Positions 7,374-59,194 of a stretch of DNA of 64,000 nucleotides are shown here, in pieces. The stretch's first letter is position 1; every line of letters starts with the position of its first letter. The stretch spans positions 100,807-164,806 of the forward strand of contig CAVUBX010000003.1 in the NCBI GenBank assembly GCA_963739935.1, read 5' to 3'. Source of the stretch: an uncultured Acidobacteriota bacterium (GTDB taxonomy: Bacteria; Acidobacteriota; Terriglobia; Acidiferrales; UBA7541). The notes under the pieces were generated by a model, which was given only the letters and a program-made list of their open reading frames with translations, did not search any database and was not told the origin of the DNA. The translations under genes and the position numbers were made by a program.

Positions 7374-7375
7374 CC

Positions 7376-9362: not shown

Positions 9363-9363
9363 A

Positions 9364-10158: not shown

Positions 10159-10305
10159 CATCCTCAGGGAAGTAAAAGAGGTGGGGGCTTGCACGCGCAC
10201 TGCAGAAAACTCGTTTCGCTCTAAAAAAAAGGCGTTGCGAAGCAGCGTCACTCAGAGTTACTGGTTGGCAAAAAACAAATAAATGAGATCATCAGAATAA
10301 TTACC

Positions 10306-32104: not shown

Positions 32105-33649
32105 GTGACTACAAAATCTTTCGCACACTTTGTTCATGCCGGAATCCTGTTCTGCTTTTTGAGCGCGATCTTCCTGGCCGCTCCGGCAGAAGCGCAGCAA
32201 TCTCCCAAAACCGCAACGGACGCTTTGCAGAAAGCTCACGTTCTCGATCGCCTCGCGGAGGCCATCCCTCCCGACCACAAGGGAACCGCGCCAAACTTTG
32301 TGCTCGATCCCGCTTTCCCGAAACCGTTGCCGCACCACTGGGTCATCGGAGATGTTGGCGGCATCACCGTCGATAAGCACGACCACATCTGGGTGTATCA
32401 CCGGCCGCGTTCACTTGGCAGCGGCGACACCGGGATGCAAGGCGCCGCCGCAACCGATGCAAAGGGCCGGCCCATCAGCGCCATCGGTTTCCCGCGTCCT
32501 TTCGGGCAGCTCAACGGTTGCTGCATGCCTGCGCCTTCCGTACTCGAATTCGATCAGGCGGGTAATCTGATGCATGCCTGGGGTGGTCCGGGCGATCCCG
32601 GTTTTCTCGACACGAAATGCCGCGAGCAGGATGGCTGCTTCTGGCCCGCACGCGAGCATGGCATTTACGTCGACGAAAACGATTTCGTCTATCTCGCAGG
32701 CAACGGGCAGGCCCGCAATTTCCATGGCCAGTATCCCTGGGCGCCGAAATTCGGCAACGATTCACATATTCTGAAGTTCAAATCGGACGGAACATTCGTG
32801 ATGCAAATCGGCACCCCCGGCGCGAAGGGCCCTAACAGCAACGATACGAATGGCGGCGTCAACGGCACGCCGCAGCCGTTCTGGCCGGCCGACATGGTGG
32901 TCGATCCGAAAACGAACCTGATGTATATCGCCGATGGTTACGGCAATCGCCGCGTGCTGATCGTGGACGCTGCCACAGGAAAATATGTCGGGCATTTCGG
33001 CGCATATGGGCAGAATCCCGTCGTCGGCGAAAATGGTGGCGTTGCGCCTGCCAGCGGTGGCGTTGGAGGCGGAGCTCCGACCGCCGCCGCAGAAGAAGTC
33101 GGCGAGGGCATCAGCTCTTGGCCCGCCGAGTACAAAGCCGGCCAGATGAAACCGAAGTTCTTCCGCAGCCCGGTGCACTGCGCCAAATTAGCCAACGACG
33201 GCTTGCTCTACGTCTGCGATCGCAGCAACAATCGCGTGCAGATCTTCAAAGCTTCCGAAGTAGGGAAGCCCTGCTCCAATCCGGACGGCGAGCCGGGCAA
33301 ATGCGGTTTTGTCGGTGAGGTTCACATCGCGCCGCAAACTTCTCTCGGCACAGCGGGCACGGTGAACTTTTCCACCGACCCCAAGCAGACCTGCATGTAC
33401 GTTGCGGATCTCAGCAACGACGTGGTCTATGTCATCAACCGGCAAAATCTCACAGAGTTAAGCCGCTTCGGGGGCGGCGGACGCCAGGCTGGCGAATTCC
33501 ATTGGCCGCACATGGTTACTGTCGATTCCGAAGGGAACATTTACGTCGGCGAAGTGGATGGCGCCTCACGAGTTCAGAAATTCCTGCGCTACGGCGCTGC
33601 GGGATGCAGCGGCACCGGAAATTCCGACGTGGGCCAGTACACCGAGTAA
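32105..33649 (+). CDS. secreted NHL-repeat six-bladed beta-propeller protein (peptidyl-alpha-hydroxyglycine lyase-like)
   Basis: Has a GTG start, a signal peptide (FLAAPAEAQQ), and repeated NHL signatures (ADGYGNRRVLIVD, CDRSNNRVQIF, GEFHWPHMVTVDSEGNIYVGE). Confidence 0.8.
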   Translation: MTTKSFAHFVHAGILFCFLSAIFLAAPAEAQQSPKTATDALQKAHVLDRLAEAIPPDHKGTAPNFVLDPAFPKPLPHHWVIGDVGGITVDKHDHIWVYHRPRSLGSGDTGMQGAAATDAKGRPISAIGFPRPFGQLNGCCMPAPSVLEFDQAGNLMHAWGGPGDPGFLDTKCREQDGCFWPAREHGIYVDENDFVYLAGNGQARNFHGQYPWAPKFGNDSHILKFKSDGTFVMQIGTPGAKGPNSNDTNGGVNGTPQPFWPADMVVDPKTNLMYIADGYGNRRVLIVDAATGKYVGHFGAYGQNPVVGENGGVAPASGGVGGGAPTAAAEEVGEGISSWPAEYKAGQMKPKFFRSPVHCAKLANDGLLYVCDRSNNRVQIFKASEVGKPCSNPDGEPGKCGFVGEVHIAPQTSLGTAGTVNFSTDPKQTCMYVADLSNDVVYVINRQNLTELSRFGGGGRQAGEFHWPHMVTVDSEGNIYVGEVDGASRVQKFLRYGAAGCSGTGNSDVGQYTE

Positions 33650-34138: not shown

Positions 34139-34624
34139 ATGTCATTTCGAGTTTGGAGCAATGACTTTAAGGAAGGCGGGCGGCTTCCCGAAGCGCAGGT
34201 TTTCAATGGCATGGGCTACACCGGCGGCAATAAATCGCCGCACCTGGCGTGGGAAGGCGCGCCAGACGGAACGAAAAGCTTCGTGGTCACCTGTTACGAT
34301 CCCGACGCGCCAACCGGATCAGGCTGGTGGCATTGGGTCGTCATCAACATTCCAGGCAGCGCCAAAGAATTGGCCGCCGGCGCGGGCAGCGGCGGAAACT
34401 TGCCAGCGGGCGCGTTGCAGACGCGCACCGATTTCGGAGCCCCCGGCTATGGCGGCGCCGCACCGCCGCCAGGACGCACCCACCACTACGTTTTTACCGT
34501 GCACGCGCTCAAGGTTGAAAAAATCGACCTGGATCCGCAATCGAGCGCGGCCATGGTCGGCTTTATGTGCTTCATGAACACCCTGGGCAAAGCCACCTTG
34601 ACGGCCACCTACAGCAAACAATAG
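34139..34624 (+). CDS. YbhB/YbcL family Raf-kinase-inhibitor-like (PEBP) protein
   Basis: Motifs SPHLAWEGAP, DPDAPTGSGWWHWVV and HHYVFTVHAL are diagnostic of bacterial PEBP proteins. Confidence 0.9.
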   Translation: MSFRVWSNDFKEGGRLPEAQVFNGMGYTGGNKSPHLAWEGAPDGTKSFVVTCYDPDAPTGSGWWHWVVINIPGSAKELAAGAGSGGNLPAGALQTRTDFGAPGYGGAAPPPGRTHHYVFTVHALKVEKIDLDPQSSAAMVGFMCFMNTLGKATLTATYSKQ

Positions 34625-37221: not shown

Positions 37222-38220
37222 TCACTGCGCGACCCACTTGTCGAGGCGCGATGCATACAAATTAGCCAGGTAGACGGCTTTCTCATCCGGACACGCAATT
37301 CCGTGAACCGAGTCGATCGTGCCGGGCATGCGTCCGGGGCGGCCGAAGGCCCCGAGTATCTTTCCGCTGAGGTCCACTTTGTACACGTGGCCCACACTCC
37401 CCACGAACATCACTTGCGACGGTCCATTAGTCAGGCAGAGCGCCCAAGGCGCAGTCGGAAAATTCCACACTGATTTCAGGTTGCCATCCGTATCAAAAAC
37501 CTGCACGCGGCTGTTGCCGCGATCCGCCACGTAGATCACATCATTGCTATCGATCACCAGGCTATGCGGCGTGTTGAAGTTTCCCGGCTGGGTGCCGCGT
37601 TCGCCCCACGCCTTCACGAAGTTTCCATCCTTGTCGAACTTCGCCACCCGCGAGTTGCCGTATCCATCCGAGACGAACATGCTGCCATCCTTGCTCCATC
37701 CGATATCGGTCTCCTGATAGAAGCTGGCTTTGTTCGGCACCGCGCCCGCGATCACATGCGTCAGGTAAGTCCACGGCTCCGGATTCGTCCCCAGCGTTCC
37801 CACCGTCCGCCCTTCGGAGTCGAAGCGGTAAATAATGTTGTCGGCCGCATCCACGTACCAGAGATTCCCTTGCGGATCGAATCGCAACTGGTGCGCGCCC
37901 GCAAACATGGTCGAGCCCTCGCCCCACGAGCGCACGAAACTCCCGTCGGATTTGAATTCCAGCACGGGGTGATAGCCCCGGTTCAGCGCCACAATTGTGC
38001 CGGTGGGGCCCACCGCAATGCCACTCACGCGTCCCACGATAGAGTTGGGCGGATAATGAAAAAAGTTCTCCACCAGATGAAACGCCAGTTGCGGGATCGG
38101 CGCTCGCGCCATGTGCCCGTCCTGCGCGTTCCCGCCTTCGCCCTGCGCTTTTATCCGCGCCGCCGGCCAAAGCGAAATCGCTGCGGCGCAAATCACTGAC
38201 ATCAGCAATAGGTTCTTCAT
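37222..38220 (-). CDS. secreted NHL-repeat beta-propeller protein (second paralogue)
   Basis: Start at MKNLLLMSVICAAAISLWP. NHL signatures include SDGYGNSRVAKFDKDGNF, ADRGNSRVQVFD and HGIACPDEKAVYLAN. Confidence 0.8.
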   Translation of the reverse strand: MKNLLLMSVICAAAISLWPAARIKAQGEGGNAQDGHMARAPIPQLAFHLVENFFHYPPNSIVGRVSGIAVGPTGTIVALNRGYHPVLEFKSDGSFVRSWGEGSTMFAGAHQLRFDPQGNLWYVDAADNIIYRFDSEGRTVGTLGTNPEPWTYLTHVIAGAVPNKASFYQETDIGWSKDGSMFVSDGYGNSRVAKFDKDGNFVKAWGERGTQPGNFNTPHSLVIDSNDVIYVADRGNSRVQVFDTDGNLKSVWNFPTAPWALCLTNGPSQVMFVGSVGHVYKVDLSGKILGAFGRPGRMPGTIDSVHGIACPDEKAVYLANLYASRLDKWVAQ

Positions 38221-38296
38221 GAAAGCCTCCACGCTGCTGCGTTGGGCAGGCATGTTAGGCCCGCTCCGTGGATATAGCAACAATGTCGATTACCTC

Positions 38297-39653
38297 GTGT
38301 CGGTAGCGCATGATATGTCCGGTGGAATTAGCAAATGAAATGTCCGCTTTTGCGGCGCGACTTGGGATAGAGGAACGTGCCGGAGGCAGGCATGGTTTTC
38401 TATCCCGAGTCCGCCGTGGAGCGGACGATGAAAATTCAGGAAGCGATTCTGCGAGCGATGGCGAAGAAGATCACTTGGAGCCAGGCGGCGGAGATCATCG
38501 GCATCAGCGACCGGCAGATGAGGCGCTGGTATGAGCGCTACCGCGAGTTTGGCTACGACGGGCTGTTTGACCGTCGCTGGCGGCGTCCCAGCCCGAAGCG
38601 GGTGCCGGTGGAGATGGTGGAACAGGTGCTGGGACTCTACCGCGAGAAGTACTCCGGCTTGAACGTGCAGCACTTCACGGAAAAGCTGCGCGAGCAGCAC
38701 AGCATCCGGCTGAGCTACACGTGGATTAAAACGGCGCTGCAAGGAGCCGGACTGGTGAGCAAGGGACGCTCGCGAGGGGTGCACCGTCGGCGGCGGGCGC
38801 GGCGGCCGTTGCCGGGCATGCTGTTGCATGTGGACGGCAGCCGCCACCGCTGGTTTCTCGACGATCGCTGGTACGACCTGCTGGTGGTGCTCGACGATGC
38901 CACAAGCGAGGTGTACTACGCGCAGTTGGTGGAGCAGGAATCGACGCGCACGGTGCTGGCGGCCCTGCGGGAGGTGGTCGAGCGCAAGGGCGCCTTCTGC
39001 GCGCTCTATAGCGATCGCGCGAGTCATTTCTTTGTCACACCACAAGCGGGCGGGAAAGTCGATCCCGAGCGGCTGACGCAAGTGGGACGGGCGCTGAAGG
39101 AGTTGGGCATGCAGATGATTCCGGCCTACTCGCCGCAGGCGCGCGGGCGCAGCGAACGCAACTTCGGGACTTGGCAGGGGCGCTTGCCGCAGGAGTTGCG
39201 TCTGAGGGGCATCACCACGGTGGAGAAAGCCAACCAGTTTTTGCGCGAGGAATATCTGGCTGAGTTCAATCGGCGTTTCTGTGTGCCTCCGGCACAGGCG
39301 GGAAGCGCGTTCCTGCCCTGCCGGCGGCGAGATCTGGATTTCATTTTTTCCATTCGGCACGAGCGCACCGTAGCGCGAGACAACACCATCGAACTCGGTG
39401 AGCGCACCTTGCAAATCGAAGCGGTAGGCTGGCGGGGCAGCTTGGCGTGTTGCCGGGTGCTGGTACACGAACATCTCGACGGCACCCTCACGGTGAGCTA
39501 TGGGCCGCACATCGTGGGGCGCTACAACGCACAAGGCTGGCCGTTGCTGGAAGGGAAACGGATGCGGCGGAAGGCCGTGGAAAAGCCGCTCCGCGGGAAA
39601 GCGCTTCGCTCACTTGCTACCAAAATCGGACATTTTAATTTGCTAACGACACA
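38297..39653 (+). mobile_element. ISNCY-like insertion sequence with imperfect terminal inverted repeats
   Basis: The left end is GTGTCGGTAGC...TTAGCAAATGAAATGTCCG (38297-38346). The reverse complement of the right end is GTGTCGTTAGCAAATTAAAATGTCCG (39627-39653). A single DDE transposase gene lies inside. No target-site duplication was seen. Confidence 0.75.
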
Positions 39654-39660
39654 AAACTGA
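38428..39660 (+). CDS. DDE transposase (ISNCY-family-like, HTH + rve integrase core)
   Basis: Has an N-terminal HTH (ITWSQAAEIIGISDRQMRRW). The integrase core has LLHVDGSRH, LVVLDDATSE and AYSPQARGRSER (the DDE triad context). An alternative start lies at 38377. Confidence 0.85.
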   Translation: MKIQEAILRAMAKKITWSQAAEIIGISDRQMRRWYERYREFGYDGLFDRRWRRPSPKRVPVEMVEQVLGLYREKYSGLNVQHFTEKLREQHSIRLSYTWIKTALQGAGLVSKGRSRGVHRRRRARRPLPGMLLHVDGSRHRWFLDDRWYDLLVVLDDATSEVYYAQLVEQESTRTVLAALREVVERKGAFCALYSDRASHFFVTPQAGGKVDPERLTQVGRALKELGMQMIPAYSPQARGRSERNFGTWQGRLPQELRLRGITTVEKANQFLREEYLAEFNRRFCVPPAQAGSAFLPCRRRDLDFIFSIRHERTVARDNTIELGERTLQIEAVGWRGSLACCRVLVHEHLDGTLTVSYGPHIVGRYNAQGWPLLEGKRMRRKAVEKPLRGKALRSLATKIGHFNLLTTQN

Positions 39661-39779
39661 GGAATAGCGGCTCGCTTGAACCTGCGAAGTCCTGGTAAAC
39701 GGGTACTCCGGGTCAGCAAATGCCGACATCTGTCGCGGAGATGCCTTCTGGACGTCACCGAGATAGGACCGTCGGCGGC

Positions 39780-40280
39780 CTAGGTAGGGTTTACACGGAA
39801 AACAGTTGACGCCGAGACCGTAGGAACCTTCCATTCGGGATATTTTTTCCCCTTAGCCTGGAGCACGGCGGCTTTTTCGGATGGATCGCTCACAACCGAT
39901 AAGGTACGGTCAAACACTTGGTCAGCGATTTTGAGCCGCACGTGAGGATCACGGATTATGTCTTCAACCCATAGTCTGCCGCGATAAGATGTGACATAGA
40001 GATTGCCGTCATATACGGCGCACCAAATGGTCACCGAGTGAGGCAGCAGAAACGGAGTCTGGGTTTGAATCTTGATTAATTTGATCTTGTCTGTGAACGA
40101 CCAGTCGGTGGCTGCGTTAGTGACGGGTTCTCCCTTCAGCCAAAGTCCTGGTACTTTGCACGACCAAGCTCTATCGGTCGGGGCGCACAGCTTTGGCTCG
40201 AAACCCGTGACACGCAGTATCAGCAGGAGCGCGACCAACGCAATTATCACTGATCCAACAATCTTTAAGAGTTTCTTCAT
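39780..40280 (-). CDS. membrane-anchored PNPOx-like / Ddn (DUF385)-like split-barrel protein, paralogue 1 of 4
   Basis: Start at MKKLLKIV followed by one TM helix. Shared motifs are LRVTGFEP, PGLWLKG, TDWSF, LLPHSVT, NLYVTS, DPHVRLKI and KKYPEWKVP. Confidence 0.7.
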   Translation of the reverse strand: MKKLLKIVGSVIIALVALLLILRVTGFEPKLCAPTDRAWSCKVPGLWLKGEPVTNAATDWSFTDKIKLIKIQTQTPFLLPHSVTIWCAVYDGNLYVTSYRGRLWVEDIIRDPHVRLKIADQVFDRTLSVVSDPSEKAAVLQAKGKKYPEWKVPTVSASTVFRVNPT

Positions 40281-40404
40281 ACCGGCTCCGATAAACGGAG
40301 CGAAGTCTAACATTGTGCCGACTTGCGGACAAGGATGCGCGTCGTGGATCAAGCTAGGATTCGAAGAATCATTGCCATGCCTGGAAACCGGGCGCTTCTT
40401 CTGC

Positions 40405-40920
40405 TTACCCCCCATGTCCACGTGAAACTGCGTGAAACAGATGCATCACTCCGCCGCCGTTTGAAGCCGCAGGCTGCGCTCTCGAGCCGAGAACGGCCGC
40501 TATCTCCGCCGGATCGCTGACCAGCGACAAAACACAGTCGTATAAGTTGTCGCCGAACTTAAGACGGACATGCGAGTCACGCATCACATCGGAAACCCAC
40601 AGCTTGCCTTGTGGGAACGGCGTTCCCGCGCGGAACATCGATGTCAAATAAAGCTGACCGTTATAGACGATGAAACCTGTAGTTACCGAATGCGGAATCA
40701 AAAACCAAGTTCGTGTCTGCACTTTGTCGGTCTGATATTTGGTTGCGAACAACCAATCAGTCACGGGAGTGGCTATTACCTGCCCGCTGAGCCATAACCC
40801 AGGATAGTTTCCAGGACCCGGTGTATTTCCGATTGGGTTAAGGCCAGTGATCCGCAGAACTACCAATACCAGAGCTAAGCCGAGCACGATCACCACTGCA
40901 ATCTTGGCTGCTACCTTCAT
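40405..40920 (-). CDS. membrane-anchored PNPOx-like / Ddn (DUF385)-like split-barrel protein, paralogue 2 of 4
   Basis: Starts MKVAAKIAVVIV with a TM helix. Shared motifs are LRITGLNP, PGLWLSG, VTDWLF, LIPHSVT, QLYLTS and DSHVRLKFGDNLYD. Confidence 0.7.
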   Translation of the reverse strand: MKVAAKIAVVIVLGLALVLVVLRITGLNPIGNTPGPGNYPGLWLSGQVIATPVTDWLFATKYQTDKVQTRTWFLIPHSVTTGFIVYNGQLYLTSMFRAGTPFPQGKLWVSDVMRDSHVRLKFGDNLYDCVLSLVSDPAEIAAVLGSRAQPAASNGGGVMHLFHAVSRGHGG

Positions 40921-41247
40921 CTTGGGATCCTAAGCGCGAGAATTTCTTCTGTACGAATAAAGCTGGGGTTTGTTATCGGAATTCTCTACAAGCATGATTA
41001 GAGTCTAACATTTCCCGAAGGGCGCTGATAAGCCCATTATGAGCGCGAATTGAAGATCTGCGAGCGAAGCCATGCATGCATCGGCCTAAAACGTTCTTGA
41101 GGGTTTCTGTGTGGGCTGCGAGCGGCACCGTGAGGACTATGATTTCCGCAGATTTTATTGTGTCGGATGAGACCAGAGGTTCGTTTCAAGCGCAGAGTGA
41201 ACTTCTGCTCCTGCCTCCCGAAGGGGCACATCGATAATCTGGCAGTC

Positions 41248-41880
41248 CTAAGGTTTATTCTCAGGGATAAGGCCCGCCAAACTCGGAGATGGCTGACTAC
41301 CGCCGTACTCCGGGATGTTTCTTTGGAAAACACGATAGACATGGTCGTAGCCTGCAACATGGTCTTGCCCGTCGGGGCCCTTCTCTACCGTTTCAGGGTT
41401 CCTGCCCAAAAAGGCGATAGCTTCGGCACGATCCGCGACCAATACCATGGTCGCTTCGTATAACTTATTGCCGATCTTTATACGCACGCGCGGATCACGG
41501 GCCACATTTGCTGTCCAGGACTTGTCATGTGGAAACGGCACGTCCATTCGATCCTGATGCGAACGAATGAAGAGCTCGCCGTTGCGCACGCTAGGCATCG
41601 TCCGGACCGAGTGGGGAATGAAATAGGGCGTTCGCGTCTCGATCAGGACGGTGTTTAGGCTACGTCCGGGGTGAGGTACTTGCTCAACGAATGACCAATC
41701 CGTGACGGGCGTGGTGACGACTTCGCCTTTCAGCCACAAGCCGGGGCGGGCAATCATGTGGTGAGCGCGAAGTTGGTCCAAGTCGAGGTATTCCGGTTCA
41801 AGACCGGTAACGCGGAGCGTCAAGAGCGCTACCGCCAGGATAGCCACGATTGCCACGCTCACTACTTTTAATATTTTCAT
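41248..41880 (-). CDS. membrane-anchored PNPOx-like / Ddn (DUF385)-like split-barrel protein, paralogue 3 of 4 (longer C-terminus)
   Basis: Starts MKILKVVSVAIV with a TM helix. Shared motifs are LRVTGLEP, PGLWLKG, VTDWSF, FIPHSVRT and DPRVRIKIGNKLYE. Confidence 0.7.
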   Translation of the reverse strand: MKILKVVSVAIVAILAVALLTLRVTGLEPEYLDLDQLRAHHMIARPGLWLKGEVVTTPVTDWSFVEQVPHPGRSLNTVLIETRTPYFIPHSVRTMPSVRNGELFIRSHQDRMDVPFPHDKSWTANVARDPRVRIKIGNKLYEATMVLVADRAEAIAFLGRNPETVEKGPDGQDHVAGYDHVYRVFQRNIPEYGGSQPSPSLAGLIPENKP

Positions 41881-42339
41881 TTTCCGTTTCTCGATTCCTT
41901 ACGATCGTCTCGCGCGATGCTACACCACCGACGGGCTGTCTGCAAAAGTTCGTCTTGCCGAACGAGCGCGCGGATTCAAAGACCTCACCGATGAGAAATC
42001 GAGGGAATGCCTAAAAATGACTTCGGCTCTCGATTGGCCCCGCTATGGTAGCGAATTCATTTTATCGAAGGCAAAAGAAACGTTACCATACGCGGTGGAG
42101 AAGGAAAGACGCTGGGGGAAATTATCCTCGGACTACCGGTTTACCCGGGTTGGGCGCTGCCAGCACGGCGTGCTATGACAAATATGAACAGTTCAGCGTC
42201 AACGAGGCCGAATTACGCAACGTCTTACCGGCAAGGCGTCCGAAAAATCGGCTTTTGAGCGCGCTGCGCATGGAATGTTCTCCGATCTTTGTTGGTCGAT
42301 CCATGTTCTTGTAAGGAGTGTCAAATTGAAGAGGCAGTT

Positions 42340-42819
42340 ATGAAGATGCTCTTAAAAATAGTAGTAGCAATCCTAGTTTGCTTAGCGTTGTTGTTGGTCG
42401 CGTTGCGCATCACGGGACTTAACCCGCATGACGGAATCCCCGGTCTGTGGCTCACAGGAAATGTTGACACCACTCGGGTCACCGATTGGTCGTTCACCAA
42501 TAAAGTTCCCACAATCAAGCTGCAGACCCAAAGTCGATTTCTGCTCCCGCACTCCGTGACAATCAATTGTCTCGCTTACAATGGTCAGCTTTACGTCACT
42601 TCCGTGTATCCGGCAGGACCGCCGAGGAGCTGGAATGAGAATGTGATGCGAGACCCCCACGTACGTATAAAAATCGGAGATAAGCTCTACGACCGTACGC
42701 TGGTTGTGGTTACCGATCAGACCGAGATCGAGGGCGTGCTCCAGGCGAGAGTGAAGAAGTACCCGCAGTTGAAAGTTCCGGCGAATGCGACGGTACATGT
42801 ATTTCACGTTATCGGCTGA
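42340..42819 (+). CDS. membrane-anchored PNPOx-like / Ddn (DUF385)-like split-barrel protein, paralogue 4 of 4
   Basis: Start at MKMLLKIVVAILV with a TM helix. Shared motifs are LRITGLNP, PGLWLTG, VTDWSF, LLPHSVT, QLYVTS, DPHVRIKIGDKLYD and KKYPQLKVP. Confidence 0.7.
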   Translation: MKMLLKIVVAILVCLALLLVALRITGLNPHDGIPGLWLTGNVDTTRVTDWSFTNKVPTIKLQTQSRFLLPHSVTINCLAYNGQLYVTSVYPAGPPRSWNENVMRDPHVRIKIGDKLYDRTLVVVTDQTEIEGVLQARVKKYPQLKVPANATVHVFHVIG

Positions 42820-42831: not shown

Positions 42832-43739
42832 ATGAAGATCGTCATCACCGGCGCCAATAGCGCTGTCGGTCAGGCCATCCTGCGATGCGGACGGAAACTC
42901 GAGGTTACGACAACCACTTTGGTCGCTGCGGTCCGTTCTGCACGCGCTGCCGAACAGATCCGCTCGGAGTCCGGTAATGCCGACAGCGTGGTCCGAATCT
43001 TGTACGATGACCCGGCTAGTCTCGAAGGAGCGTTTCAGGGCGCTTCCGCAGTTATCCACCTCGCGGGAATTCTCGTCGAAACCCCGGATTCGACTTATGA
43101 GCAGGCCAATGTTGCGTCAACTCGGGGCGTCGTGGAAGCCGCGAAGCGAATGCGGGGTGCAGAAAATCGTCTTGGTGAGCGCGACGGGGGCCGATGAGAC
43201 GTCTCGCAATCGATACTACCGCACCAAAGGGCAGGCGGAGGCTCTCGTTCGCACATCAGGATTGAATTATACGGTGCTCCGCGCCCCGCTTTTGCTTGGT
43301 CCCGGCACTGCCGGCGCGGCGACACTTGGGCGCCACGTAAACCAAAGCCGGCCCAAGCTGATCGGCGGCGGCCGCAATCTTCAGCAGCCTCTCTGTGTAG
43401 ATGATTTAGCACGAGCTGCACTGGCCGCCACAAAACCATCGGTTGCGAACAACCTTGTTTTGGACCTGGTTGGCCCTGTCTCCCTGCCGGAGCGGGAACT
43501 CGTAGAGCGCGCTGCCCGCTTGCTAGGTCGCCAGGTCCGGATCGGTTCGATTCCAAAGCACTGGGCTTCGTTGGTGTCTGGCCATCCGACAGCGCCTCGG
43601 TAAACCCGGCTTTTCGCGGGACGCTCTCGACGTAATCACCGCGGACACGGGTCTCGATCCGCAGCCGGCCGCGTCTGCTCTCGGAATCGAACTCACCGGA
43701 ATTGACGAAATGATCAAAAACAGCTTAGGCCAAGGATGA
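42832..43739 (+). pseudogene. NAD(P)-binding SDR/NmrA-like (NDUFA9-like) protein, reading frame broken twice
   Basis: Has the N-terminus MKIVITGANSAVGQ and a YYRTK (YxxxK) motif. The product is spread over three frames: 42832-43150, 43150-43580 and 43580-43739, the last ending ...ALGIELTGIDEMIKNSLGQG. Frame changes fall near 43148-43156 and 43570-43600. Confidence 0.7.
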
Positions 43740-43743: not shown

Positions 43744-44722
43744 ATGAGTGAGACCGTCCCAACCACCAGTGCATCTTCAATCCCAACCAGCAAAAAGGCG
43801 AAGCCATGGCAGCGGATTTTGCCATTCGCCATTACGGCAGCTTGCTTTGCCTATCTTTATACCCGTCTCAGGGCCGCCGCTGCGGCTGAAGGCAGCGGGC
43901 TGCTGGCCTACCTCTTAAAAAGCTTCGAGAATGTAAACTGGCTTCATTGGCTAGCGTTGGTGATTCCATACTGTTTCCTTTATCTCCTGATTGACAGCCT
44001 GGTTGTTTGGACCGTGATCAACTGGTTCAACGCAAAAATCCGCTACGCGGATATCCTGCCGATTCGGGCCAGCGCCTATATTCTTTCCTTGCTGAACGAA
44101 CAAGTCAGCAAGGGCGCCATCGCTCTCTATCTCAACCGCAGGGACGGTTTACCAGGCTGGGAAATCGGCTCCAGCATGCTTTTCCTCATGTTTTGTGAAT
44201 ATTACAGCCTGATACTATGGGCGTCCATCGGCGCGCTGTTGCGATGGAATAGCATTCAGACTGTTTTTCACATCATCCCTTGGATCGCCTTGGGCTCCGG
44301 CATATTCTTCGTGTTTTTCCATCTCTTCTTCAGCGGGAAAAATCGGCTCGGGGATCGCGTTGCGCGAGCGCCAGATCTTCCGCGCGTTCCGGCTGGCTAA
44401 GGTGTGGCATTACGGAGCGGTGATTGCGATGCGCGCGCCGCTGGTCATCGCCGGCGTGATTGTTTATACCCTGGCTTTAAGGCTCTTCGGAGGCACAGTC
44501 GGCTTTGGCGAAATGCTGGGATATCTGCCGGTGATTTTCTTCGGCGCGGCCATACCCGGGCCGATGCACTCGGTCGCTATCCTCTTCTGGGTTCTGCTCT
44601 TTCCAGACAAGCCCGGACAGATGACGGCGTTTGGATTCGTCATGCATAATTTCTTCATCTTCTTTAATGCCGGAGTCGGCCTGCTATTTCTCCGGCGAGC
44701 GAGCCGGGAGATGTTCGCGTAG
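43744..44722 (+). pseudogene. multi-pass membrane protein (possibly flippase-like/UPF0104), frameshifted
   Basis: ORFs 43744..44400 and 44360..44722 are contiguous hydrophobic halves in different frames. The junction lies near an A5 run at 44338-44342. The family call is tentative. Confidence 0.45.
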
Positions 44723-45230
44723 CCTGCTGGACATCAGGCGCTGGCCCATCGATACCAGAGTGCTCAGAACCAGCATCCAGACCAGGACGGTAAGCAAGGG
44801 TCGAAACCAGGATGCGCCCAATCGAATGAGAATCTCCAGGCAAGGCGGGACGAAATACAGCATGCCGTTATAGCGCCCAAGCTTGCTCCCGCGGAGCCTC
44901 GCCTGTCGATGGATCCAGTAAGAATCGATGACGTACTGCGAAAAGGCCGCGACGATCAGGACCGGCAGAATCCATGGAAACACTCCGCGAAGTGCACCGG
45001 CAAATAATCCGCTCGTGACAAACAGAAAATCGGTAGTGTGATCGAAGAGTCCCGCTCCACGCGGTCACCGTACCTCTGCGGCGCGCGATGGGTCCATCCA
45101 GGAAATCCGTAATCAGAGCCACGGCCCACACGACCAAAGCGAAAACCGCAGAACGCACATCTCCTTTGGCCATGAAGAACGCAAATGGGACCACCAGAAG
45201 CAGGCGAACAGCCGTCAGGGCATTAGCCAT
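44684..45230 (-). pseudogene. CDP-alcohol phosphatidyltransferase family protein, frameshifted
   Basis: The motif DFLDGPIARRRGTVTA is in one frame and GAGLFDHTTDFLFV...FPWILPVLIVAAF in another. The junction lies near 45050-45062. Confidence 0.7.
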
Positions 45231-45469: not shown

Positions 45470-46669
45470 ATGGCAAATGTGGCGATTCCTTACCATGTGG
45501 ATGCCGCTCTCGAGCGTGGATTAGAGGGCCGTGGTATCTCCCGCGAAGATGCGCTTTCGTTGATGGAAGAAGGCCCGCTAGCAGCTTTGGTCCAGGCGGC
45601 TGGTGCTGTCCGGGACCGCTTCAAAGGCAATTCGGTCAGCTACTCCAGAAAAGTCTTCATTCCGCTCACCCACCTTTGTCGCGACTATTGCGGCTATTGC
45701 ACCTTCCGGGCTGATCCGCAACCCGGCGTGCCCTCGTACATGACCCCAGATGAAGTGCTGGCGGTAGCCGAGGCAGGGCGCCGTGCGGGATGCAAGGAGG
45801 CTCTGTTCAGCCTTGGCGATCAGCCCGAGCGGGTGTTTCCGGAAGCGAAAGAGTTTCTGCATTCGTTGGGCTTCGATACGACGCTCGAATATCTTGCGGC
45901 GATGAGTGAGTTGGTTCTTTTGAAGACTGGTTTACTCCCTCATTCAAATCCAGGCTTGATGGGCTCGAAAGACCTTTGCCGGCTGCGCGAGACAAACGTC
46001 AGCGTCGGCATAATGCTGGAGAGCGCTAGTCCTCGGCTGGGACGCCCCGGTGGGGCGCACTGGAAAGCGCCGGACAAAGTTCCTTCGCTTCGCTTGCGGA
46101 CAATTGAGAATGCAGGCCAATTGTCCATGGCCTTCACGACTGGCATTTTAATCGGAATTGGTGAGACTTCAGAGGAACGTGTGGATGCGCTGCTGGCGAT
46201 CCGTTCTGCCCATGAAAAGTATGGCCACGTGCAGGAAGTGATCGTCCAGCCCTTCCGCGTCAAACTGGATATTCGGATGGCTCGGGCGCCGGAGCCTTCC
46301 AACGATGATTTACTGCGCACGATTGCAGTCGCGCGCTTGCTTTTCGGCGGGGAGATGAATATCCAATCCCCGCCCAATCTGCTCTCGGAGGACTACCCGG
46401 ATTTGCTGACTGCCGGTCTCAACGACTGGGGTGGAATTTCGCCAGTGACAAAGGATTTCATTAACCCGGAAGCCGCCTGGCCGCAGATCTCTTCGCTGGC
46501 GGAGAGAACCGCGAAGGCAGGGTTCGTTTTGCGCGAACGGTTGGCAATCTATCCGGAATTTTCCTCGCGCCCGGAATTCGTAAGCGAGCAACTCCGGCCG
46601 TATGTTCGAAAGCTCCAGGGCGGGGATGGCTATGCTCGAGGGGAGGGTGACCCATGCTTAAAGCAGTGA
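45470..46669 (+). CDS. cofG: 7,8-didemethyl-8-hydroxy-5-deazariboflavin (F0) synthase subunit CofG (radical SAM)
   Basis: SYSRKVFIPLTHLCRDYCGYCTF shows the CofG-type CxxxCxxC context, followed by GCKEALFSLGDQPE. The split partner cofH lies directly downstream. Confidence 0.85.
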   Translation: MANVAIPYHVDAALERGLEGRGISREDALSLMEEGPLAALVQAAGAVRDRFKGNSVSYSRKVFIPLTHLCRDYCGYCTFRADPQPGVPSYMTPDEVLAVAEAGRRAGCKEALFSLGDQPERVFPEAKEFLHSLGFDTTLEYLAAMSELVLLKTGLLPHSNPGLMGSKDLCRLRETNVSVGIMLESASPRLGRPGGAHWKAPDKVPSLRLRTIENAGQLSMAFTTGILIGIGETSEERVDALLAIRSAHEKYGHVQEVIVQPFRVKLDIRMARAPEPSNDDLLRTIAVARLLFGGEMNIQSPPNLLSEDYPDLLTAGLNDWGGISPVTKDFINPEAAWPQISSLAERTAKAGFVLRERLAIYPEFSSRPEFVSEQLRPYVRKLQGGDGYARGEGDPCLKQ

Positions 46670-47908
46670 ATGCCGAATGGACTGAAGTCTCCTTGGATCG
46701 AGCCATCGCTATGGCGAGCCGAAATGTCGCCGGGGCCCTGGAAAAGGTTCTCGCGGGGAGCGATTTGGGCCTTGAAGAGGGGCTGACCCTGGCCAAGGTG
46801 GAAGACGAAGACCTTCTGGCGCTCCTGAAAGTCGCGGACGAGCTCCGTCATCGTGCGGTCGGCGACCGCGTCACCTACGTAGTGAACAGGAATTTGAATT
46901 TCACCAACATTTGCATCGTCGGCTGCGCTTTTTGCGGATTCAGCCGCGGGCCGGATTCGCCGGAGGCTTATTTCCATTCTACGGACACACTGATTGCCAA
47001 GTCGCTCGAAGCGGTCGAGCATGGCGCTACGGAAGTGTGCATTCAAGGCGGACTTCCGAAGGACCTAAACGGCTACTATTACGTTGAACTTCTTCGCGCC
47101 ATCAAGGCTCGATTGCCTGAACTTCATGTGCACGCCTTTTCGCCCATGGAAATCACGTACGGCGTCGAGAAAACGCGCCTGCCCCTGCGCGAGTACCTCT
47201 TCATGTTGAAGGAATCCGGACTGGGCAGTATTCCGGGAACGGCCGCGGAAATACTCGACGACGATGTACGCAGATCGCTCAGCCCCAATAAATTGAAAGT
47301 TCGGCAGTGGATTGACGTCATCCGCACGGCACACAGCCTTGGCATACCCTCGACTTCCACGATGATGTATGGCCACACCGAGCTTCCCGAACATTGGGTA
47401 AGGCATATCCTGCTGCTTCGCGACATTCAAAAGGAAACTCACGGATTTACCGAATTCGTTCCGCTTGGATTCATCCATTCTAAAACCCGGCTTTTCCAGA
47501 GCGGAGCCGCCCGCGCCGGGACGCTCGATCCACGAGGATTTGATCGTTCATGCGCTCGCCCGCGTGCTTTTGCACGGCTATATCCCCAATATTCAAGTCT
47601 CTTGGGTCAAACTGGGTTTTGAGCAATCCTTGACGTGTCTGCAGGCAGGAGCGAACGATTTCGGAGGCACCTTGATGGAGGAGAGTATCTCGAAGATGGC
47701 TGGGGCGACTTTCGGCGAATATGTCTCACCCGGCGAATTCCGTGCGATGATCCGAACCATCGGACGGATCCCTGCGGAGCGCTCAACAACTTATGGAATC
47801 CGCAAGGTTTTCGAGAACCCGGACGCCGAGGAGAGCCTCCCAGTTGAACCAATGCCGATACTCACTCCCCCGGCGAATCATGCGCCAGTGATCGCGACAG
47901 GCTACTGA
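46654..47908 (+). pseudogene. cofH: F0 synthase subunit CofH (radical SAM), single frameshift near 47515-47520 (or assembly indel)
   Basis: VVNRNLNFTNICIVGCAFCGFS shows the CofH-type cluster. The frame-1 part ends ...FIHSKTRLFQSGAARAG. The product continues as RSIHEDLIVHALARVLLHGYIPNIQVSWVKLG...GANDFGGTLMEE in ORF 47465..47908. Removing one G from CCGGGA restores a full-length CofH. Confidence 0.8.
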
Positions 47909-47995
47909 TAGCAAGTACACTGTTTGCGAAAAGATCCGAATCAGATCAGGGAGGTTGATATTCGTACGTTTTTGCTTCCCATATCATTCTCACAT

Positions 47996-48120
47996 TTGGT
48001 GAGTAGCTTATTTGCTCGATTGGTCGCGATTTGAAGTGGTGTAGCCTGCGCGAAGGCCGTGAGAAAGGAATTCATCTGCGCGCTATGGCCCAGACCTGTC
48101 TTTGATGAGTTTTGGCGATC
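47996..48120 (-). pseudogene. fragment of a LuxR-type response-regulator gene (copy 1 of a ~125-bp direct repeat)
   Basis: The minus-strand reading ...VWAIAR/AQMNSFLTAFAQATPLQIATNRANKLLTKCEND parallels the fragment at 49651-49773 and then breaks off. Confidence 0.4.
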
Positions 48121-48391
48121 TTACTTTTCCACGGTGACACCGTGTATGCTACTTGCTCCATGGATCATGAGAAGAGAGTCCTTCTGACGAACTGACATGC
48201 GACGCCTACCGACACGACGGGATTTCGAAGAAAGAGCGTTGGTTGTCTCGATTTTAATTCTGTTGATGGCGGCAATCGCTCAGCACTTCTGGTTACTTCG
48301 CCGCTGACACCGTGGTTCCCGCCCGGGTTTTAGAAACGCCAGCCCCGTGGAATACAGATGTTAACGCTCTCCGACGAAGCAGCATACTGAA

Positions 48392-48691
48392 ATGATATGT
48401 TGTGACATGGTCTCAAGAACACAATCTACGGAAGAACAGAACCAGTTTAAGGCTCGGTTGATCCACGCCAACCTGGAGACGGCCATCGTGCTCGCAAAGG
48501 TTGCGCTGGAGTCTGACGATGAGAGGGCCGTCATCAGAACCAGACAAAAAGCGTGTGAAGCTTACGAGGAAGCTCTCTACTGCTTACGTACCGCTGTTTT
48601 GACCCAGATAGAGTTCGAAGCGATCAGGACGAAGATCGCACATTTGGACTCGGTTCTGATGGCGTCGGGCGAAGCGTCTGCGGCGTTTTGA
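48392..48691 (+). CDS. hypothetical small helical protein
   Basis: ORF of 99 aa in a low-GC, otherwise decayed region. No motif was recognised. Confidence 0.3.
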   Translation: MICCDMVSRTQSTEEQNQFKARLIHANLETAIVLAKVALESDDERAVIRTRQKACEAYEEALYCLRTAVLTQIEFEAIRTKIAHLDSVLMASGEASAAF

Positions 48692-49475
48692 ACCTCGATC
48701 TCACGGAACGACTACTGACATACCTTCACGCTTTTCCGAAGAAACGCTTCCGCTGAATTTCGAATTGATCTTCTTTTGCCTCAGTAACACGCATCCCTTC
48801 CACTTTAACTGCACCCACGTCTGAATCCTCTGAAGGGAATTCCCTTAGATTCTTCGGGTCCGCGTCGGTAAGATCCATGGGCCTAATAGTTCGTCCAATG
48901 TCCATTTGTTTGGCTCATTGATCTTTTATCCTTTCTTGCCGGTAGCAATATGGCTTCTCTGTTGCGCCGCCGTACTTGCATCGAAGGAGGGAAGCGCCCA
49001 GGCATTGTGGAAGCGTTGGATGGGAATATCACCTCGCCGCCGAACCATGTCACATCATAAATGGGAGGGCAGTTTGTCTGATCGTCGAAGATTCGATATT
49101 CGAGATAGCTTTTTTCTATATCCTCAGGATCGTCGGTCAGCGCAAACTACAGCCTGATTTCGCGGTCACTCGACTACATTCTTGCTCATCGTGGTGACCT
49201 GCCTGTGAATTGCCTGTCATCTAGTTTATAAATGACGATTCTCAATATATCGCGAAAAAGCCACATCCGCCTGGAATGGCGGGGCAGCAAATACCGATAG
49301 CTCTCGCCGATTATGGGTTCCTCCGCGAAGCAGGTCCCCTCAGGGATTCGGCAGTGATTGGTCGGGATGGCACCACCGGAGGAAATTCACGAGTCCGAAC
49401 AGTTTCCGAGCCCGGCAGAACAACTTATGTCCGCGATCGGTGTTTCAGTGTTGCCGGCGGATTCTTCTTCGAAGA

Positions 49476-49800
49476 TCAGGGATGTGAATTTCCGAGCCAA
49501 TACAGAACCAGCTTGACTAGAAGTCCCCAGTTTTTGTAGATCCTAAACAGGTAGTTGCTAACCGTGTGTTCGGTGAGGCCAAGTTTTTGTGATACCTCGC
49601 GGTTGCTGAAACCCTGCACCACATGCTTGGCGACATCATTTTCACGTTTCGTGAGCAACTTATTTGCCCGAATTGGTCGCGATTTGAAGTGGCGCGACCT
49701 GTGCGAAAGCCGCGAGAAGGGAATTCAGCTGCTCGCTATTGGCCCAAACCTATCCCTGATGAGTTTTGACGATCCTTCGATTGGTCCGATTCGGGCGGCT
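49476..49800 (-). pseudogene. LuxR/NarL-type response regulator, C-terminal remnant with in-frame stops and frameshifts
   Basis: Has the GerE HTH LTKRENDVAKHVVQGFSNREVSQKLGLTEHTVSNYLFRIYK. The upstream part reads ...RRIVKTHQG*VWANSEQLNSLLAAFAQVAPLQIATNSGK* with TAG and TAA interruptions. The receiver domain is missing. Confidence 0.65.
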
Positions 49801-50072
49801 CTGCTGATGGCGCTGATTCAAACACCGCATGGCTTTCGAACCAAGCGACAATTCTGGGCCTCCAACGAACGAAGAGACCCACATCGATCCGCGGGCTCAA
49901 TCTCATCTCAATGATGATCTGAAAAATATCTTCAGGGCGCAGCCGCGCGGGCTGCGATTACCGGCGGACCTTTACAGGATTTCTATGCTGGCATGATGGC
50001 TCGCGGAATGAAGCCGTCGATGGCACGTCTGACGCTGGCCCGGAAGATTGCCGTGATCACTTTGCCAATTAA
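49765..50072 (+). pseudogene. IS110-family-like transposase, 3-prime remnant
   Basis: Has the helix-hairpin-helix-like SIGPIRAALLMALIQTPHGFRTKRQFWAS and a C-terminal FYAGMMARGMKPSMARLTLARKIAVITL, separated by tandem TGA TGA stops at 49915-49920. No N-terminal catalytic domain is present. Confidence 0.45.
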
Positions 50073-50317
50073 GGTACTAGCCCACCATTTGTCCGGTTTT
50101 CCGACTTCAACCAAGGTTTAGCATCGCACCATCTCACGTGTGGCCTTAAAGCCGTCGCTCCGCTGGAGCCATTCAATTCTTTCAAACTCGATATGGCAAG
50201 CATCGTTCGACGGCTGAGCGGGAAACCAACGCTTAGCAATGTGGCAAACTCGGCAGAGACCAAAGCTGAATGTCGTATCGATGGTACGTTAGAGGCGCCG
50301 AAAGTTACTCTTCTGCC

Positions 50318-50640
50318 CTAGAGATTTCGATTGGAACTAAGGGAAGAAGTTTCCTGCATTGCCAAGCGGAGAGTGAACTGAAAGCAGCTACCCTGCCCTT
50401 GCTGACCTTCGACGATTATGGTTCCTCCCATCGCTGTCACGAGTCTGGAGCAAACAGCCAAGCCCATGCCCGTGCCGCCATGTTTTCTGGTCATGGAACT
50501 GTCAGCTTGCGAGAATGGCTCGAAGATGTTCTTTCGCCTGTCCGCCGGAATGCCGATACCGCTGTCTTTCACGAGAAAGTGCAGCCAAGTGATGGCGGCT
50601 CGGCACTGTGTCCGACCCAGCCAAAGCGAAAATCGCAGAG
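50318..50640 (-). pseudogene. histidine kinase HATPase_c C-terminal fragment
   Basis: Reads ITWLHFLVKDSGIGIPADRRKNIFEPFSQADSSMTRKHGGTGMGLAVCSRLVTAMGGTIIVEGQQGQGSCFQFTL. No HisKA or sensor part is found upstream. Confidence 0.65.
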
Positions 50641-50946
50641 GAAATCACAGGCATCCGCAGTGCCGTTATGAAGGTCCCAAGAAGTTTCGTCCGGGTGGTT
50701 TTCCTTTCCTATCAGAAAGGGTCCGGATTTACGGCTGGTCAGGAGGCTCCGACGGCTGCGCTGAATTGCGTTCTGCGGAGCGGCCATAGCGCCGAAGAAA
50801 AGATCGACATGCTGAAGCGCTTATGGGCGATGTTTCAGGACTTGACCGGCTTCGCCACTGATCAAATCGCAATATCCCTCCAAGAGATCCCTCCCAGCAA
50901 CGCGATGGAAATGGGACAGATCATGCAATCAGTAGGACACGAGTAG
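50608..50946 (+). pseudogene. tautomerase-superfamily protein lacking the N-terminal Pro-1 segment
   Basis: SDPAKAKIAEEITGIRSAVMKVPRSFVRVVF resembles the 4-OT beta-alpha-beta unit starting about 11 residues in. An in-frame TGA at 50590 excludes a canonical MP... start. It overlaps the kinase fragment on the opposite strand. Confidence 0.45.
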
Positions 50947-51274
50947 ACATATTCGAACAAGTGCGGCCCGATTGCTGGCGCCGCGTGGAGCTTCAGATGT
51001 GCTTGTTTAACCCAGCCATGGTGCTCTGACAATGCCGCCGAAAACACCATGTCAGCGCCTAAACAGTTGCGAGGATTTTGTCACCTACCCGGGCTGATGC
51101 TTTCAGTACGAATCGCCTAAAACGCTTTTTCTCAACATACAAAGTTTTGGTGCCGCAAGTGCGTACAGGTCGAGTGCCACCCGAGAGGGTGGGTCGATGC
51201 GCCGTTCATCTATGCGTTGAATTGACCGGCATCGCGGGGTCGTCATGTGTTGGGCGAGGAGCCCGGGCAAAGAT

Positions 51275-52339
51275 ATGAGATGGAATGAGCAAACTCGGAT
51301 TCTGCTCAGCAAAGCGGCTGGAATCGCCGTGCTGCTCGCGGGCTTTTTGCTTGCCGCAAGATTGTGTTTGGGGGCGCCGGCCGATTCCTCTCAAACTCCC
51401 AATATTTTCAGACCCGCATCGACACCTGCAGACTCGATTTTCCATTTGTCGTTGCTGGTGCTTTCAGTTACGGGTCTGATTTTTCTGGTCGTCTTTAGCC
51501 TGATCGTATACGCCATCGTGAAGTTCCGGAGGCGCGGTGGCGAGGCCCATCGCGAGCCGCCCCAGGTCTACGGCAGCAATCAGGTAGAAGTTGCTTGGAC
51601 TGTGATCCCGGTTCTGATCGTTCTCGTGCTGTTCCTTGCCACTGCCCGCGTAATCCACTCCATTCAGGACGCTCCTGAGCCTGGCGGATCGATCGAGGTC
51701 ACCGTGATCGGCCATCAGTTCTGGTGGGAGTTTCGTTACCCACAACTCGGATTTGTGACGGCAAACGAACTTCATGTTCCACTCAGCGATCCTTCGCATC
51801 CCACGCCAACATTTCTCACTTTAATGTCCGCCGACACCGATCACAGCTTCTGGGTGCCGCGCCTCGCGGGAAAAACCGACCTGATTCCCAACCGCGTTAA
51901 CCAGATGTGGATCGATCCGCACGAGCCAGGCCTTTACCTGGGCCAGTGCGCCCAATACTGCGGCGTGGAACACGCCATGATGTTGCTGCGCGTCTACGTT
52001 GACTCACCCGAGCAGTTTGACAAATGGGTGCAGACACAAAAAAACGATGCCGTAAGTGATAACTCAGTTGTGGAGGGGCGCCGCATCTTTGAATCGACCG
52101 GTTGCATTAACTGCCACGCCGTCAGGGGAACTGTAGCGAATGGGCGCTTTGGTCCCGATCTCACTCATCTGATGAGTCGCGACACACTCGCCTCGGGCAT
52201 CGTGCCAAATACAGCAGAGAATCTCCGGCAATGGATTCAGGACCCCGAGCCTATGAAACCAGGATGCCTCATGCCGGCGATGAAACTAAGTAACACGGAC
52301 ATGAACGCGGTTGTCGCCTACCTCGAGACGCTTCGATGA
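51275..52339 (+). CDS. ctaC: cytochrome c oxidase subunit II with C-terminal cytochrome c domain (caa3-type)
   Basis: Has the CuA motif DHSFWVP...CAQYCGVEHAMM and a C-terminal haem-c site CINCH. Two N-terminal TM helices are present. Confidence 0.9.
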   Translation: MRWNEQTRILLSKAAGIAVLLAGFLLAARLCLGAPADSSQTPNIFRPASTPADSIFHLSLLVLSVTGLIFLVVFSLIVYAIVKFRRRGGEAHREPPQVYGSNQVEVAWTVIPVLIVLVLFLATARVIHSIQDAPEPGGSIEVTVIGHQFWWEFRYPQLGFVTANELHVPLSDPSHPTPTFLTLMSADTDHSFWVPRLAGKTDLIPNRVNQMWIDPHEPGLYLGQCAQYCGVEHAMMLLRVYVDSPEQFDKWVQTQKNDAVSDNSVVEGRRIFESTGCINCHAVRGTVANGRFGPDLTHLMSRDTLASGIVPNTAENLRQWIQDPEPMKPGCLMPAMKLSNTDMNAVVAYLETLR

Positions 52340-52349
52340 AAGCGGGAGC

Positions 52350-54029: not shown

Positions 54030-54044
54030 AAAAGGAGAATTTGC

Positions 54045-54641
54045 TTGAGTACCGCCGCTTTCGCAGAGCCACCTCTTGAGTCCCAGTGGACTCTCCCGTC
54101 ACGGGGCCGCGTCGGGATGATTACGCTGATTGCCGCTGAATCGGCAATCTTCACGATTTTCGTGGTCGCCTACATTTTCTACATCGGGAAAAGCCTGTCG
54201 GGGCCGACGCCCAAGGATGTGCTTACGGTTCCGATTTTCGCCACGATTTGTCTGCTTTCCAGCAGCCTATCCATTCATCTGGCGGTTCGAGCTCTGCGAA
54301 ACGTAAGGATCGGAATGTTCGGGACTTGGTGGTTCGTAACCATGGCGCTCGGCATGATCTTTCTCATCGAGACGGGGCGCGAGTGGCAGAAGCTGATATT
54401 TCATGAGGGCCTGACCATCAGCACGAATCTTTTCGGCACGACCTATTACTCGCTCGTCGGCTTACACGCCTTTCACGTTACCGTCGGCCTAATCGTAATC
54501 GCGATCGTCATGACGTTCAAATTTCTGGGGAAAATGACGCCGCATTACAGCGAGCGCCTGGAGGTGTTTTCACTGTATTGGCATTTTGTCGACGCAGTGT
54601 GGGTCGTTGTGTTCACCGTTGTTTACGTGATCGGTCGTTAA
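54045..54641 (+). CDS. ctaE: cytochrome c oxidase subunit III
   Basis: TTG start preceded by AAGGAG. Has five TM helices and the characteristic YYSLVGLHAFHVTVG and LYWHFVDAVWV segments. Confidence 0.85.
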   Translation: MSTAAFAEPPLESQWTLPSRGRVGMITLIAAESAIFTIFVVAYIFYIGKSLSGPTPKDVLTVPIFATICLLSSSLSIHLAVRALRNVRIGMFGTWWFVTMALGMIFLIETGREWQKLIFHEGLTISTNLFGTTYYSLVGLHAFHVTVGLIVIAIVMTFKFLGKMTPHYSERLEVFSLYWHFVDAVWVVVFTVVYVIGR

Positions 54642-54657
54642 GGAAGAAGAAAATCAC

Positions 54658-59192: not shown

Positions 59193-59194
59193 GC

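Follow-up and report, generated by a model that had tools for sequence, protein, structure and literature searches.

The window analyzed here, a stretch of 64,000 nucleotides from an uncultured Acidobacteriota bacterium, carries an array of four genes (A to D) for small, membrane-anchored proteins. It is followed by genes for a short-chain dehydrogenase/reductase (SDR), a membrane protein (MP325), a divergent CDP-alcohol phosphotransferase and the FO synthase subunits CofG and CofH. By sequence comparison, A to D are ancient paralogues of an unannotated family that is found across Acidobacteriota, where its genes lie in a conserved cluster, and structure modeling assigns the family the split beta-barrel fold of Ddn and the other FDOR-A proteins. 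Collectively, the predicted export of these Ddn-like barrels and their linkage to FO synthase hint at extracytoplasmic deazaflavin chemistry. The reading we favor, to which we assign a probability of about 0.4, is that the exported barrels bind FO, the deazaflavin head group of coenzyme F420, or an FO derivative as a cofactor for hydride transfer at the membrane surface.

The paralogues and their conserved gene cluster

The array comprises the following genes:

39780–40280, minus strand: paralogue A, 166 residues, a signal-anchored FDOR-A/DUF2255-like split-barrel protein with a C-x8-C cysteine pair between anchor and barrel and Y-P-x-W at the position of Ddn Y130–Y133
40405–40920, minus strand: paralogue B, 171 residues, same family, with a diverged C-terminal KKYP region
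41248–41880, minus strand: paralogue C, 210 residues, same family, carrying two insertions and ending in a disordered C-terminal tail
42340–42819, plus strand: paralogue D, 159 residues, same family, first gene of a D–SDR–MP325 operon

All four open reading frames (ORFs) are intact and lie where a preliminary description of this DNA had placed them. That description also called them clear paralogues, and indeed they align along their whole length with 37 columns invariant across A to D, the similarity of even the most divergent pair, A and C, being far beyond chance (BLASTP E = 1e-33). Its estimate that they are roughly half identical stands as a statement of paralogy but not as a figure, as identity to A is 42% for B, 36% for C and 55% for D. 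The motifs it listed are real: the invariant columns include PGLWLxG, TDW(S/L)F, (L/I)PHSV and RDPxVR(L/I)K, and KKYP occurs in two copies, A and D. The longest ORF of A extends to 40421; the MKKLLK start at 40280 was adopted because the orthologues of A are 166 residues long.

Downstream of D, the cluster continues with five genes:

42832–43738, plus strand: NDUFA9-like NAD(P)H-binding SDR, 301 residues when intact, starting 12 nt past D
43744–44722, plus strand: hydrophobic membrane protein MP325, 325 residues when intact, with about eight transmembrane (TM) segments predicted from sequence
44682–45230, minus strand: divergent CDP-alcohol phosphotransferase, 181 residues when intact, its four catalytic aspartates invariant
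45470–46669, plus strand: cofG, FO synthase subunit, intact, scoring 440 bits against TIGR03550 (cut-off 213)
46654–47908, plus strand: cofH, FO synthase subunit, 417 residues when intact

The intact cofH of sister contig L002 scores 483 bits against TIGR03551 (cut-off 374), and by their profile scores cofG and cofH are true FO synthase subunits. The Ser-Tyr-Lys catalytic triad of the SDR is invariant in its orthologues. Its closest solved relatives are 9G83 chain P (E = 2.6e-27) and the 39-kDa complex I subunit NDUFA9/NUEM, with triphenylmethane reductase and the quinone reductase YtfG coming next. MP325 is strongly conserved, with 81% mean column identity and 51% identity to the Vicinamibacterales protein. 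It has no detectable relative: its profile matches nothing in the PDB, and the sole Pfam hint is to LPG_synthase_TM (E ≥ 0.26, in 4 of 19 members), so that the label "flippase-like" is a guess. The phosphotransferase scores 47 bits against the pgsA profile (cut-off 109), has a best PDB match at E = 1.6e-3 and matches no characterized subfamily. The names given by NCBI to these three proteins are "NAD(P)H-binding protein" for the SDR, "hypothetical protein" for MP325 and "CDP-alcohol phosphatidyltransferase family protein" for the phosphotransferase.

A scan of one genome per species yielded 78 loci, nearly all of them from Acidobacteriota (Bryobacterales, Terriglobia, Acidiferrales, Vicinamibacterales, Polarisedimenticolia and Sulfopaludibacter). 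As mapped by tblastn and ORFs, the conserved order is one to six tandem family copies, an SDR of about 300 residues, the 325-residue MP325, the 181-residue CDP-alcohol phosphotransferase and then cofG–cofH. The core of SDR, MP325 and phosphotransferase is present at 54 of the 78 loci, and at 33 of these 54 it is linked to cofG/cofH across a gap whose median is 227 bp. Of the core loci that lack cofG/cofH, about eight stop at a contig edge; among untruncated clusters, cofGH adjoins the core in roughly 70%, in several orders. The tie to FO synthase is thus stronger than was claimed from the window, where cofG and cofH had been noted 2.6 kb from the array. The linkage survives inversions (for example, at L017, L032 and L058) as well as insertion sequence (IS) elements, and large gaps to cofG are filled by IS elements or other insertions. 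At several loci, cofG is immediately preceded, or cofH immediately followed, by a family copy.

Orthologues specific to each of the four types, at 60–90% identity, occur in several Acidobacteriota orders. The duplications are therefore old, and the "tandem diversification" of the preliminary description is a misleading term for the array. Identical or near-identical copies of D are found on contigs from Danish soil long-read metagenomes, and its named relatives are Acidobacteriota (Terriglobia, Bryobacterales and Candidatus Acidiferrales). The family as a whole comprises at least 3,777 clusters at 90% identity and is named "hypothetical" in nearly all sources; some relatives carry the NCBI name DUF2255, and a few database entries already annotate relatives as F420H2-dependent quinone reductases. 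The longer proteins of the family proved to be fusions to TPR domains or chimeras created by frameshifts, and they added no information. The number of family copies per 20-kb locus ranges from one to six, the six tandem copies upstream of the SDR in a Terriglobia metagenome-assembled genome (L065:10001–13700) being the upper extreme, and a genome may in addition carry A-type copies that stand alone at other sites.

Fold, cofactor groove and membrane topology

Structures of paralogues C and D were modeled with AlphaFold (AF2) and searched with Foldseek. The D model (predicted local distance difference test, pLDDT, 93.5; predicted template modeling score, pTM, 0.83) contains a TM helix at residues 2–25, which bears out the N-terminal membrane anchor proposed for these proteins, and then a six-stranded split beta-barrel. 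Its top match is Ddn (3R5P; E = 2e-6; TM score 0.75 on Ddn; 23% identity), the protein to which the second half of the paralogues had been likened by eye. The next matches are 3R5R (Ddn), the Nocardia homologues 3R5Z and 3R5Y, Rv1558 and MSMEG_2027, and other top FDOR-A structures matched by the AF2 models are 7KL8, 6XRI and 4Y9I. All 60 PDB chains found with D at E ≤ 0.001 belong to the PNPOx-like FMN-binding split-barrel clan; FDOR-B, NimA, PNPOx and HugZ-type structures rank lower. The C model (pLDDT 82.2) gives the same FDOR-A and split-barrel matches, more weakly. On these models, the fold of the family is the split beta-barrel of FDOR-A proteins such as Ddn.

The likeness to DUF385 (PF04075) that had also been proposed was recovered as a weak, consistent profile similarity below the Pfam and NCBIfam cut-offs. 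Against PF04075 (cut-off 22), C scores 17.3 and D 15.9 bits, A and B have no match, and the E-values in window proteins are 0.005 and 0.015; by the curated threshold, the proteins are not members of this family. TIGR00026 gives 19–22 bits for window proteins against a cut-off of 46 (E = 2e-4 to 1e-3), DUF2255 (PF10012) gives 25.2 bits for A (E = 2e-5) and 15.4 bits for D against a gathering score of 29.8, and PNPOx_N is matched below threshold at E = 0.014. Every one of these sub-threshold matches of A to D belongs to one clan. Among 106 diverse family members, 70 match PF04075 (best E = 5e-6) and 36 match DUF2255 (best E = 7e-14) at E ≤ 0.01. When searched against PDB sequences, the profile of these 106 sequences ranked Ddn first at a marginal E of 0.05, and a profile of the four paralogues found nothing relevant there. 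DUF2255 is itself an uncharacterized split-barrel family without known function, and membership would therefore explain nothing.

The contacts of Ddn (Rv3547) with F420 have been described (Cellitti et al., PMC3267046). R54, K55, T56 and R60 touch the glutamate tail; K79 and the amides of M87 and W88 touch the phosphate; W88 and P63 touch the ribityl group; and A76, K79 and Y133 touch the ring, while Y130 and Y65 touch the substrate (PMC3267046). Comparison of the family with Ddn by hhalign aligns the invariant W98 and N101 of D with Ddn W88 and N91 with good confidence. D P70 aligns with Ddn P59 and the invariant H71 with Ddn R60, and the basic Ddn hairpin TGRKTGQPR faces SRFLLPH in the family. 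In a low-confidence stretch of the alignment, D Y141-P142 align with Ddn Y130-P131, and A and the family consensus place an aromatic residue opposite Ddn Y133; the YP-region motif is missing from B and C. The alignment shows no basic residue in the family opposite Ddn K79, and no conserved counterpart of any of the tail and phosphate ligands R54, K55, T56, R60 and K79. In this alignment, the family seems to retain residues close to the ribityl and ring of the head group, and it has lost the ligands of the anionic phosphate and glutamates.

Overall, the family shares with Ddn the split beta-barrel and its strand order, an association with the membrane, the helix B motif W..N, the strand (D/N)PxVxhxhG and, by the low-confidence part of the alignment, probably the YP motif. 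It differs in its sub-threshold scores, in the loss of the F420 tail and phosphate ligands, in having a TM signal anchor or lipoprotein signal where the N terminus of Ddn is amphipathic, in its predicted periplasmic location, in the additional invariant motifs PGLWLxGE, TDWSF and PHSV, and in its host phylum, Acidobacteriota. The invariant histidine of PHSV (H71) could in principle serve as a ligand in periplasmic heme-binding or heme-degrading proteins of the HugZ/HutZ type, and HugZ, ChuZ, alr5027 and At3g03890 are among the Foldseek matches. In addition, a CREG/DUF2470 (HugZ-like) gene lies divergently upstream of the D orthologue at one locus (L005:8784–9608), where D has no A, B or C neighbors. 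However, the heme proteins stand well below FDOR-A in Foldseek rank, at 9–13% identity, no conserved heme-uptake genes lie nearby and the DUF2470 neighbor occurs at this one locus only, which makes a heme function very improbable.

A search of 1.84 billion cluster representatives returned 673 related clusters, and 202 full-length relatives were classified. In 124 of these (61%), a lipoprotein signal peptide takes the place of the anchor, its lipobox cysteine lying 2–12 residues ahead of the conserved PG(L)WL motif (for example, LLVAC followed by EPQDYRPGFWLSGE). The acidobacterial anchor ...LR(V/I)TG(L/F)(E/N)P occupies the same position in 47 of the 202, and an RR motif is found in only 11. 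Across 144 acidobacterial copies, the flank N terminal to the helix carries a mean of 1.7 Lys/Arg and no acidic residues, and the 15 residues past the helix are nearly neutral in charge; these flanks predict an N-in/C-out orientation. The cysteine spacing C-x6-10-C recurs between anchor and barrel in 40 of the 42 copies of the A type, as expected if the pair forms a periplasmic disulfide. Because three independent sequence-based lines (lipoprotein signals in relatives, flank charges and the cysteine pair) agree, the barrel most likely lies on the periplasmic, outer face of the inner membrane, with the N-terminal signal anchor uncleaved. A cytoplasmic site with access to the F420H2 pool is not what these features predict, and we know of no F420H2 pool in the periplasm.

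These results bear on the central proposal of the preliminary description, that A to D are F420H2-dependent reductases. Under it, the proteins would be cytoplasm-facing, membrane-tethered, Ddn-like reductases of quinones or xenobiotics, supplied with F420H2 by a complete pathway encoded elsewhere in the genome. Ddn is indeed the closest fold, the equivalents of its W88 and N91 are kept and cofG and cofH are linked. Moreover, genes for F420 biosynthesis are reported from the genomes of some Acidobacteria, and there are membrane-associated mycobacterial proteins, FDOR-AA, with a lipid-biosynthesis gene context (PMC8498797). FDOR-AA proteins are, however, presumed to be cytoplasmic and F420-dependent, and descriptions of them mention no connection with FO synthase or a CDP-alcohol phosphotransferase. 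In the family studied here, the lipoprotein cysteine just ahead of the barrel in most relatives argues for an exported domain, the flank charges and the cysteine pair agree with this, the basic ligands of the F420 phosphate and glutamates are lacking, and the scores stay below curated cut-offs. The Pfam-annotated neighborhoods (about 5.7–27.4 kb and 32–64 kb of the window, and loci L002, L005, L008 and L091) contain no cofC, cofD or cofE (or fbiB) and no fno or fgd. Taken together, these points make the cytoplasmic F420H2 reductase model quite unlikely.

Candidate roles of the exported barrels

In the reading we favor, the barrels would hold uncharged FO, or an FO derivative made by the cluster, tightly in the groove equivalent to the F420 groove of Ddn. 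Much as Ddn reduces menaquinone, they would transfer hydride between substrates in the periplasm or membrane and a lipophilic acceptor, for which menaquinone is a candidate; the substrate may differ between the paralogues. FO could get to periplasmic barrels because it readily diffuses across membranes; its redox properties are near those of F420, which it can replace in vitro (PMC8498797). In addition, the F420-bound dehydrogenase fHMAD (FGD2, Rv0132c) of Mycobacterium tuberculosis works outside the mycobacterial cytoplasm (PMC8498797; PMC3478262). These published properties of FO and fHMAD make an FO-binding role feasible. fHMAD is a precedent for an extracytoplasmic deazaflavin enzyme that has a lipid substrate and functions without a pool of reduced cofactor, but it has a luciferase-like TIM-barrel fold and is exported folded, with F420 bound, by the twin-arginine translocation pathway, whereas the family in the window has Sec-type or lipoprotein signals.

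The phosphotransferase gene, which is divergent from cofG, allows a more elaborate version of FO binding, in which phosphotransferase-modified FO serves as a lipid-linked, membrane-spanning hydride carrier. The CDP-alcohol phosphotransferase would add a phospho-alcohol or phosphatidyl group to the ribityl 5′-OH of FO and so take the chemical place of CofC/CofD, yielding a membrane-bound deazaflavin. The eight-TM protein would carry this molecule into the outer leaflet, NAD(P)H would supply the NDUFA9-like SDR with electrons to reduce it at the inner face, and the periplasm-facing paralogues would use it for extracytoplasmic hydride transfer. We regard this scheme as a long shot.

The main rival to a deazaflavin role is that the exported split barrels work without deazaflavin. 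They would then be ligand-binding or lipid-handling proteins that act with the SDR, the eight-TM protein and the phosphotransferase on a membrane lipid or quinone, and cofGH would adjoin the core through lineage-specific chance or because of a regulatory tie to the phosphotransferase. We consider this possible, if on the doubtful side. The loss of the F420-tail ligands fits it, as does the resemblance of the SDR to the lipid- and quinone-proximal complex I subunit NDUFA9 and to YtfG. Several further observations weigh against FO binding and in part favor this rival. About 13 untruncated core clusters, including those of Vicinamibacterales, have no cofG/cofH within 10 kb. In Vicinamibacterales (L049 and L052; about 7350–10500), the SDR, MP325 and phosphotransferase genes overlap as one tight operon, divergent from the family copy, and no cofGH lies within 10 kb. 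Near three lipoprotein-type relatives outside Acidobacteriota, there are neither deazaflavin genes nor a conserved partner, and 20 solitary A-type copies have no conserved neighbors. Furthermore, the topology is a prediction based on homologues and on rules applied to the sequence, the C-terminal YP region aligns with Ddn at low confidence, and cofactor binding is read from sequence and models of proteins whose similarity to FDOR-A lies below curated cut-offs. Against a role without deazaflavin, however, cofGH stays beside the core in most untruncated clusters of several orders despite rearrangements, some family genes directly adjoin cofG or cofH and are read in the same direction, and the most conserved barrel residues align with positions that line the Ddn cofactor groove. 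Other neighbors of the two Vicinamibacterales operons are a PQQ-dependent dehydrogenase and TonB-dependent receptor-like outer-membrane proteins.

The enzymes of the FDOR-A/Ddn type are known from descriptions in Actinobacteria and Chloroflexi, where they use F420H2 in the cytoplasm (PMC8498797). Our literature search found no description of the present family, of exported FDOR-like proteins or of a cluster of cofGH with a phosphotransferase, and it found nothing on DUF2255, on deazaflavins together with a CDP-alcohol phosphatidyltransferase or on PDB entry 9G83. Acidobacteriota are among the most abundant soil phyla, and to our knowledge no work addresses a role of deazaflavins in them. If the tie between barrels and FO synthase is functional, it would place the redox reactions of a deazaflavin on the outer side of the inner membrane in a Gram-negative cell, with FO itself, not F420, used as the redox cofactor, and the cluster would offer F420 researchers a concrete, testable set of genes. 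If it is not, the family should not carry the annotation F420H2-dependent quinone reductase.

Sequence quality, mobile DNA and surroundings

Several cluster genes are broken in the window. Relative to sister contig L002, there are single-base insertions in the SDR (43152 and 43575), MP325 (44335), the phosphotransferase (45050) and cofH (47516), and in L001, an assembly from the same population, genes are broken at other places. Because that assembly breaks elsewhere, the breaks are read as, and probably are, long-read assembly indels. Pseudogenes of the SDR, MP325, phosphotransferase and cofH were considered and judged less likely, each break being a single-base insertion at a site that differs between same-population assemblies.

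The preliminary description correctly placed an IS element directly beside the array:

38333–39640, plus strand: ISNCY-family insertion sequence with 20-nt terminal inverted repeats (38333–38352 and 39621–39640)

Its ISNCY-family transposase is encoded at 38377–39660. Three sister contigs part from the window at 39772–39779, directly past the stop codon of A. At the divergence point, one of them has an extracytoplasmic function (ECF) sigma factor and pentose-phosphate genes, and another has a DDE_Tnp_1 IS. The ISNCY element is a strain-level insertion or rearrangement outside the functional cluster. IS elements or other insertions also split the cluster at L075, L082, L020 and L027 and, together with the element in the window, they indicate that the locus attracts mobile DNA.

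No riboswitch or other Rfam family was found at 38.0–51.5 kb of the window. Downstream of cofH, at 47900–51240, lies a 3.3-kb ORF-poor stretch with a lower G+C content (0.51) and no Rfam match. Remnants of a LuxR-type helix-turn-helix domain (49476–49658, minus strand) and a histidine-kinase ATPase domain (50318–50572, minus strand) are recognizable in it, and the stretch resembles either the decayed remains of a two-component system or sequence with many frameshifts. Upstream of the IS element, two NHL-repeat beta-propeller genes and one PEBP-family gene occupy 32105–33649, 34139–34624 and 37222–38283; no link of such proteins to the cluster was seen in related loci. Directly downstream of the cluster, at 51245–59200, the window carries a respiratory gene block that encodes cytochrome c oxidase subunits II (with a fused cytochrome c domain), I and III, a diheme cytochrome c, a Rieske protein, a cytochrome b/c fusion and Caa3_CtaG.

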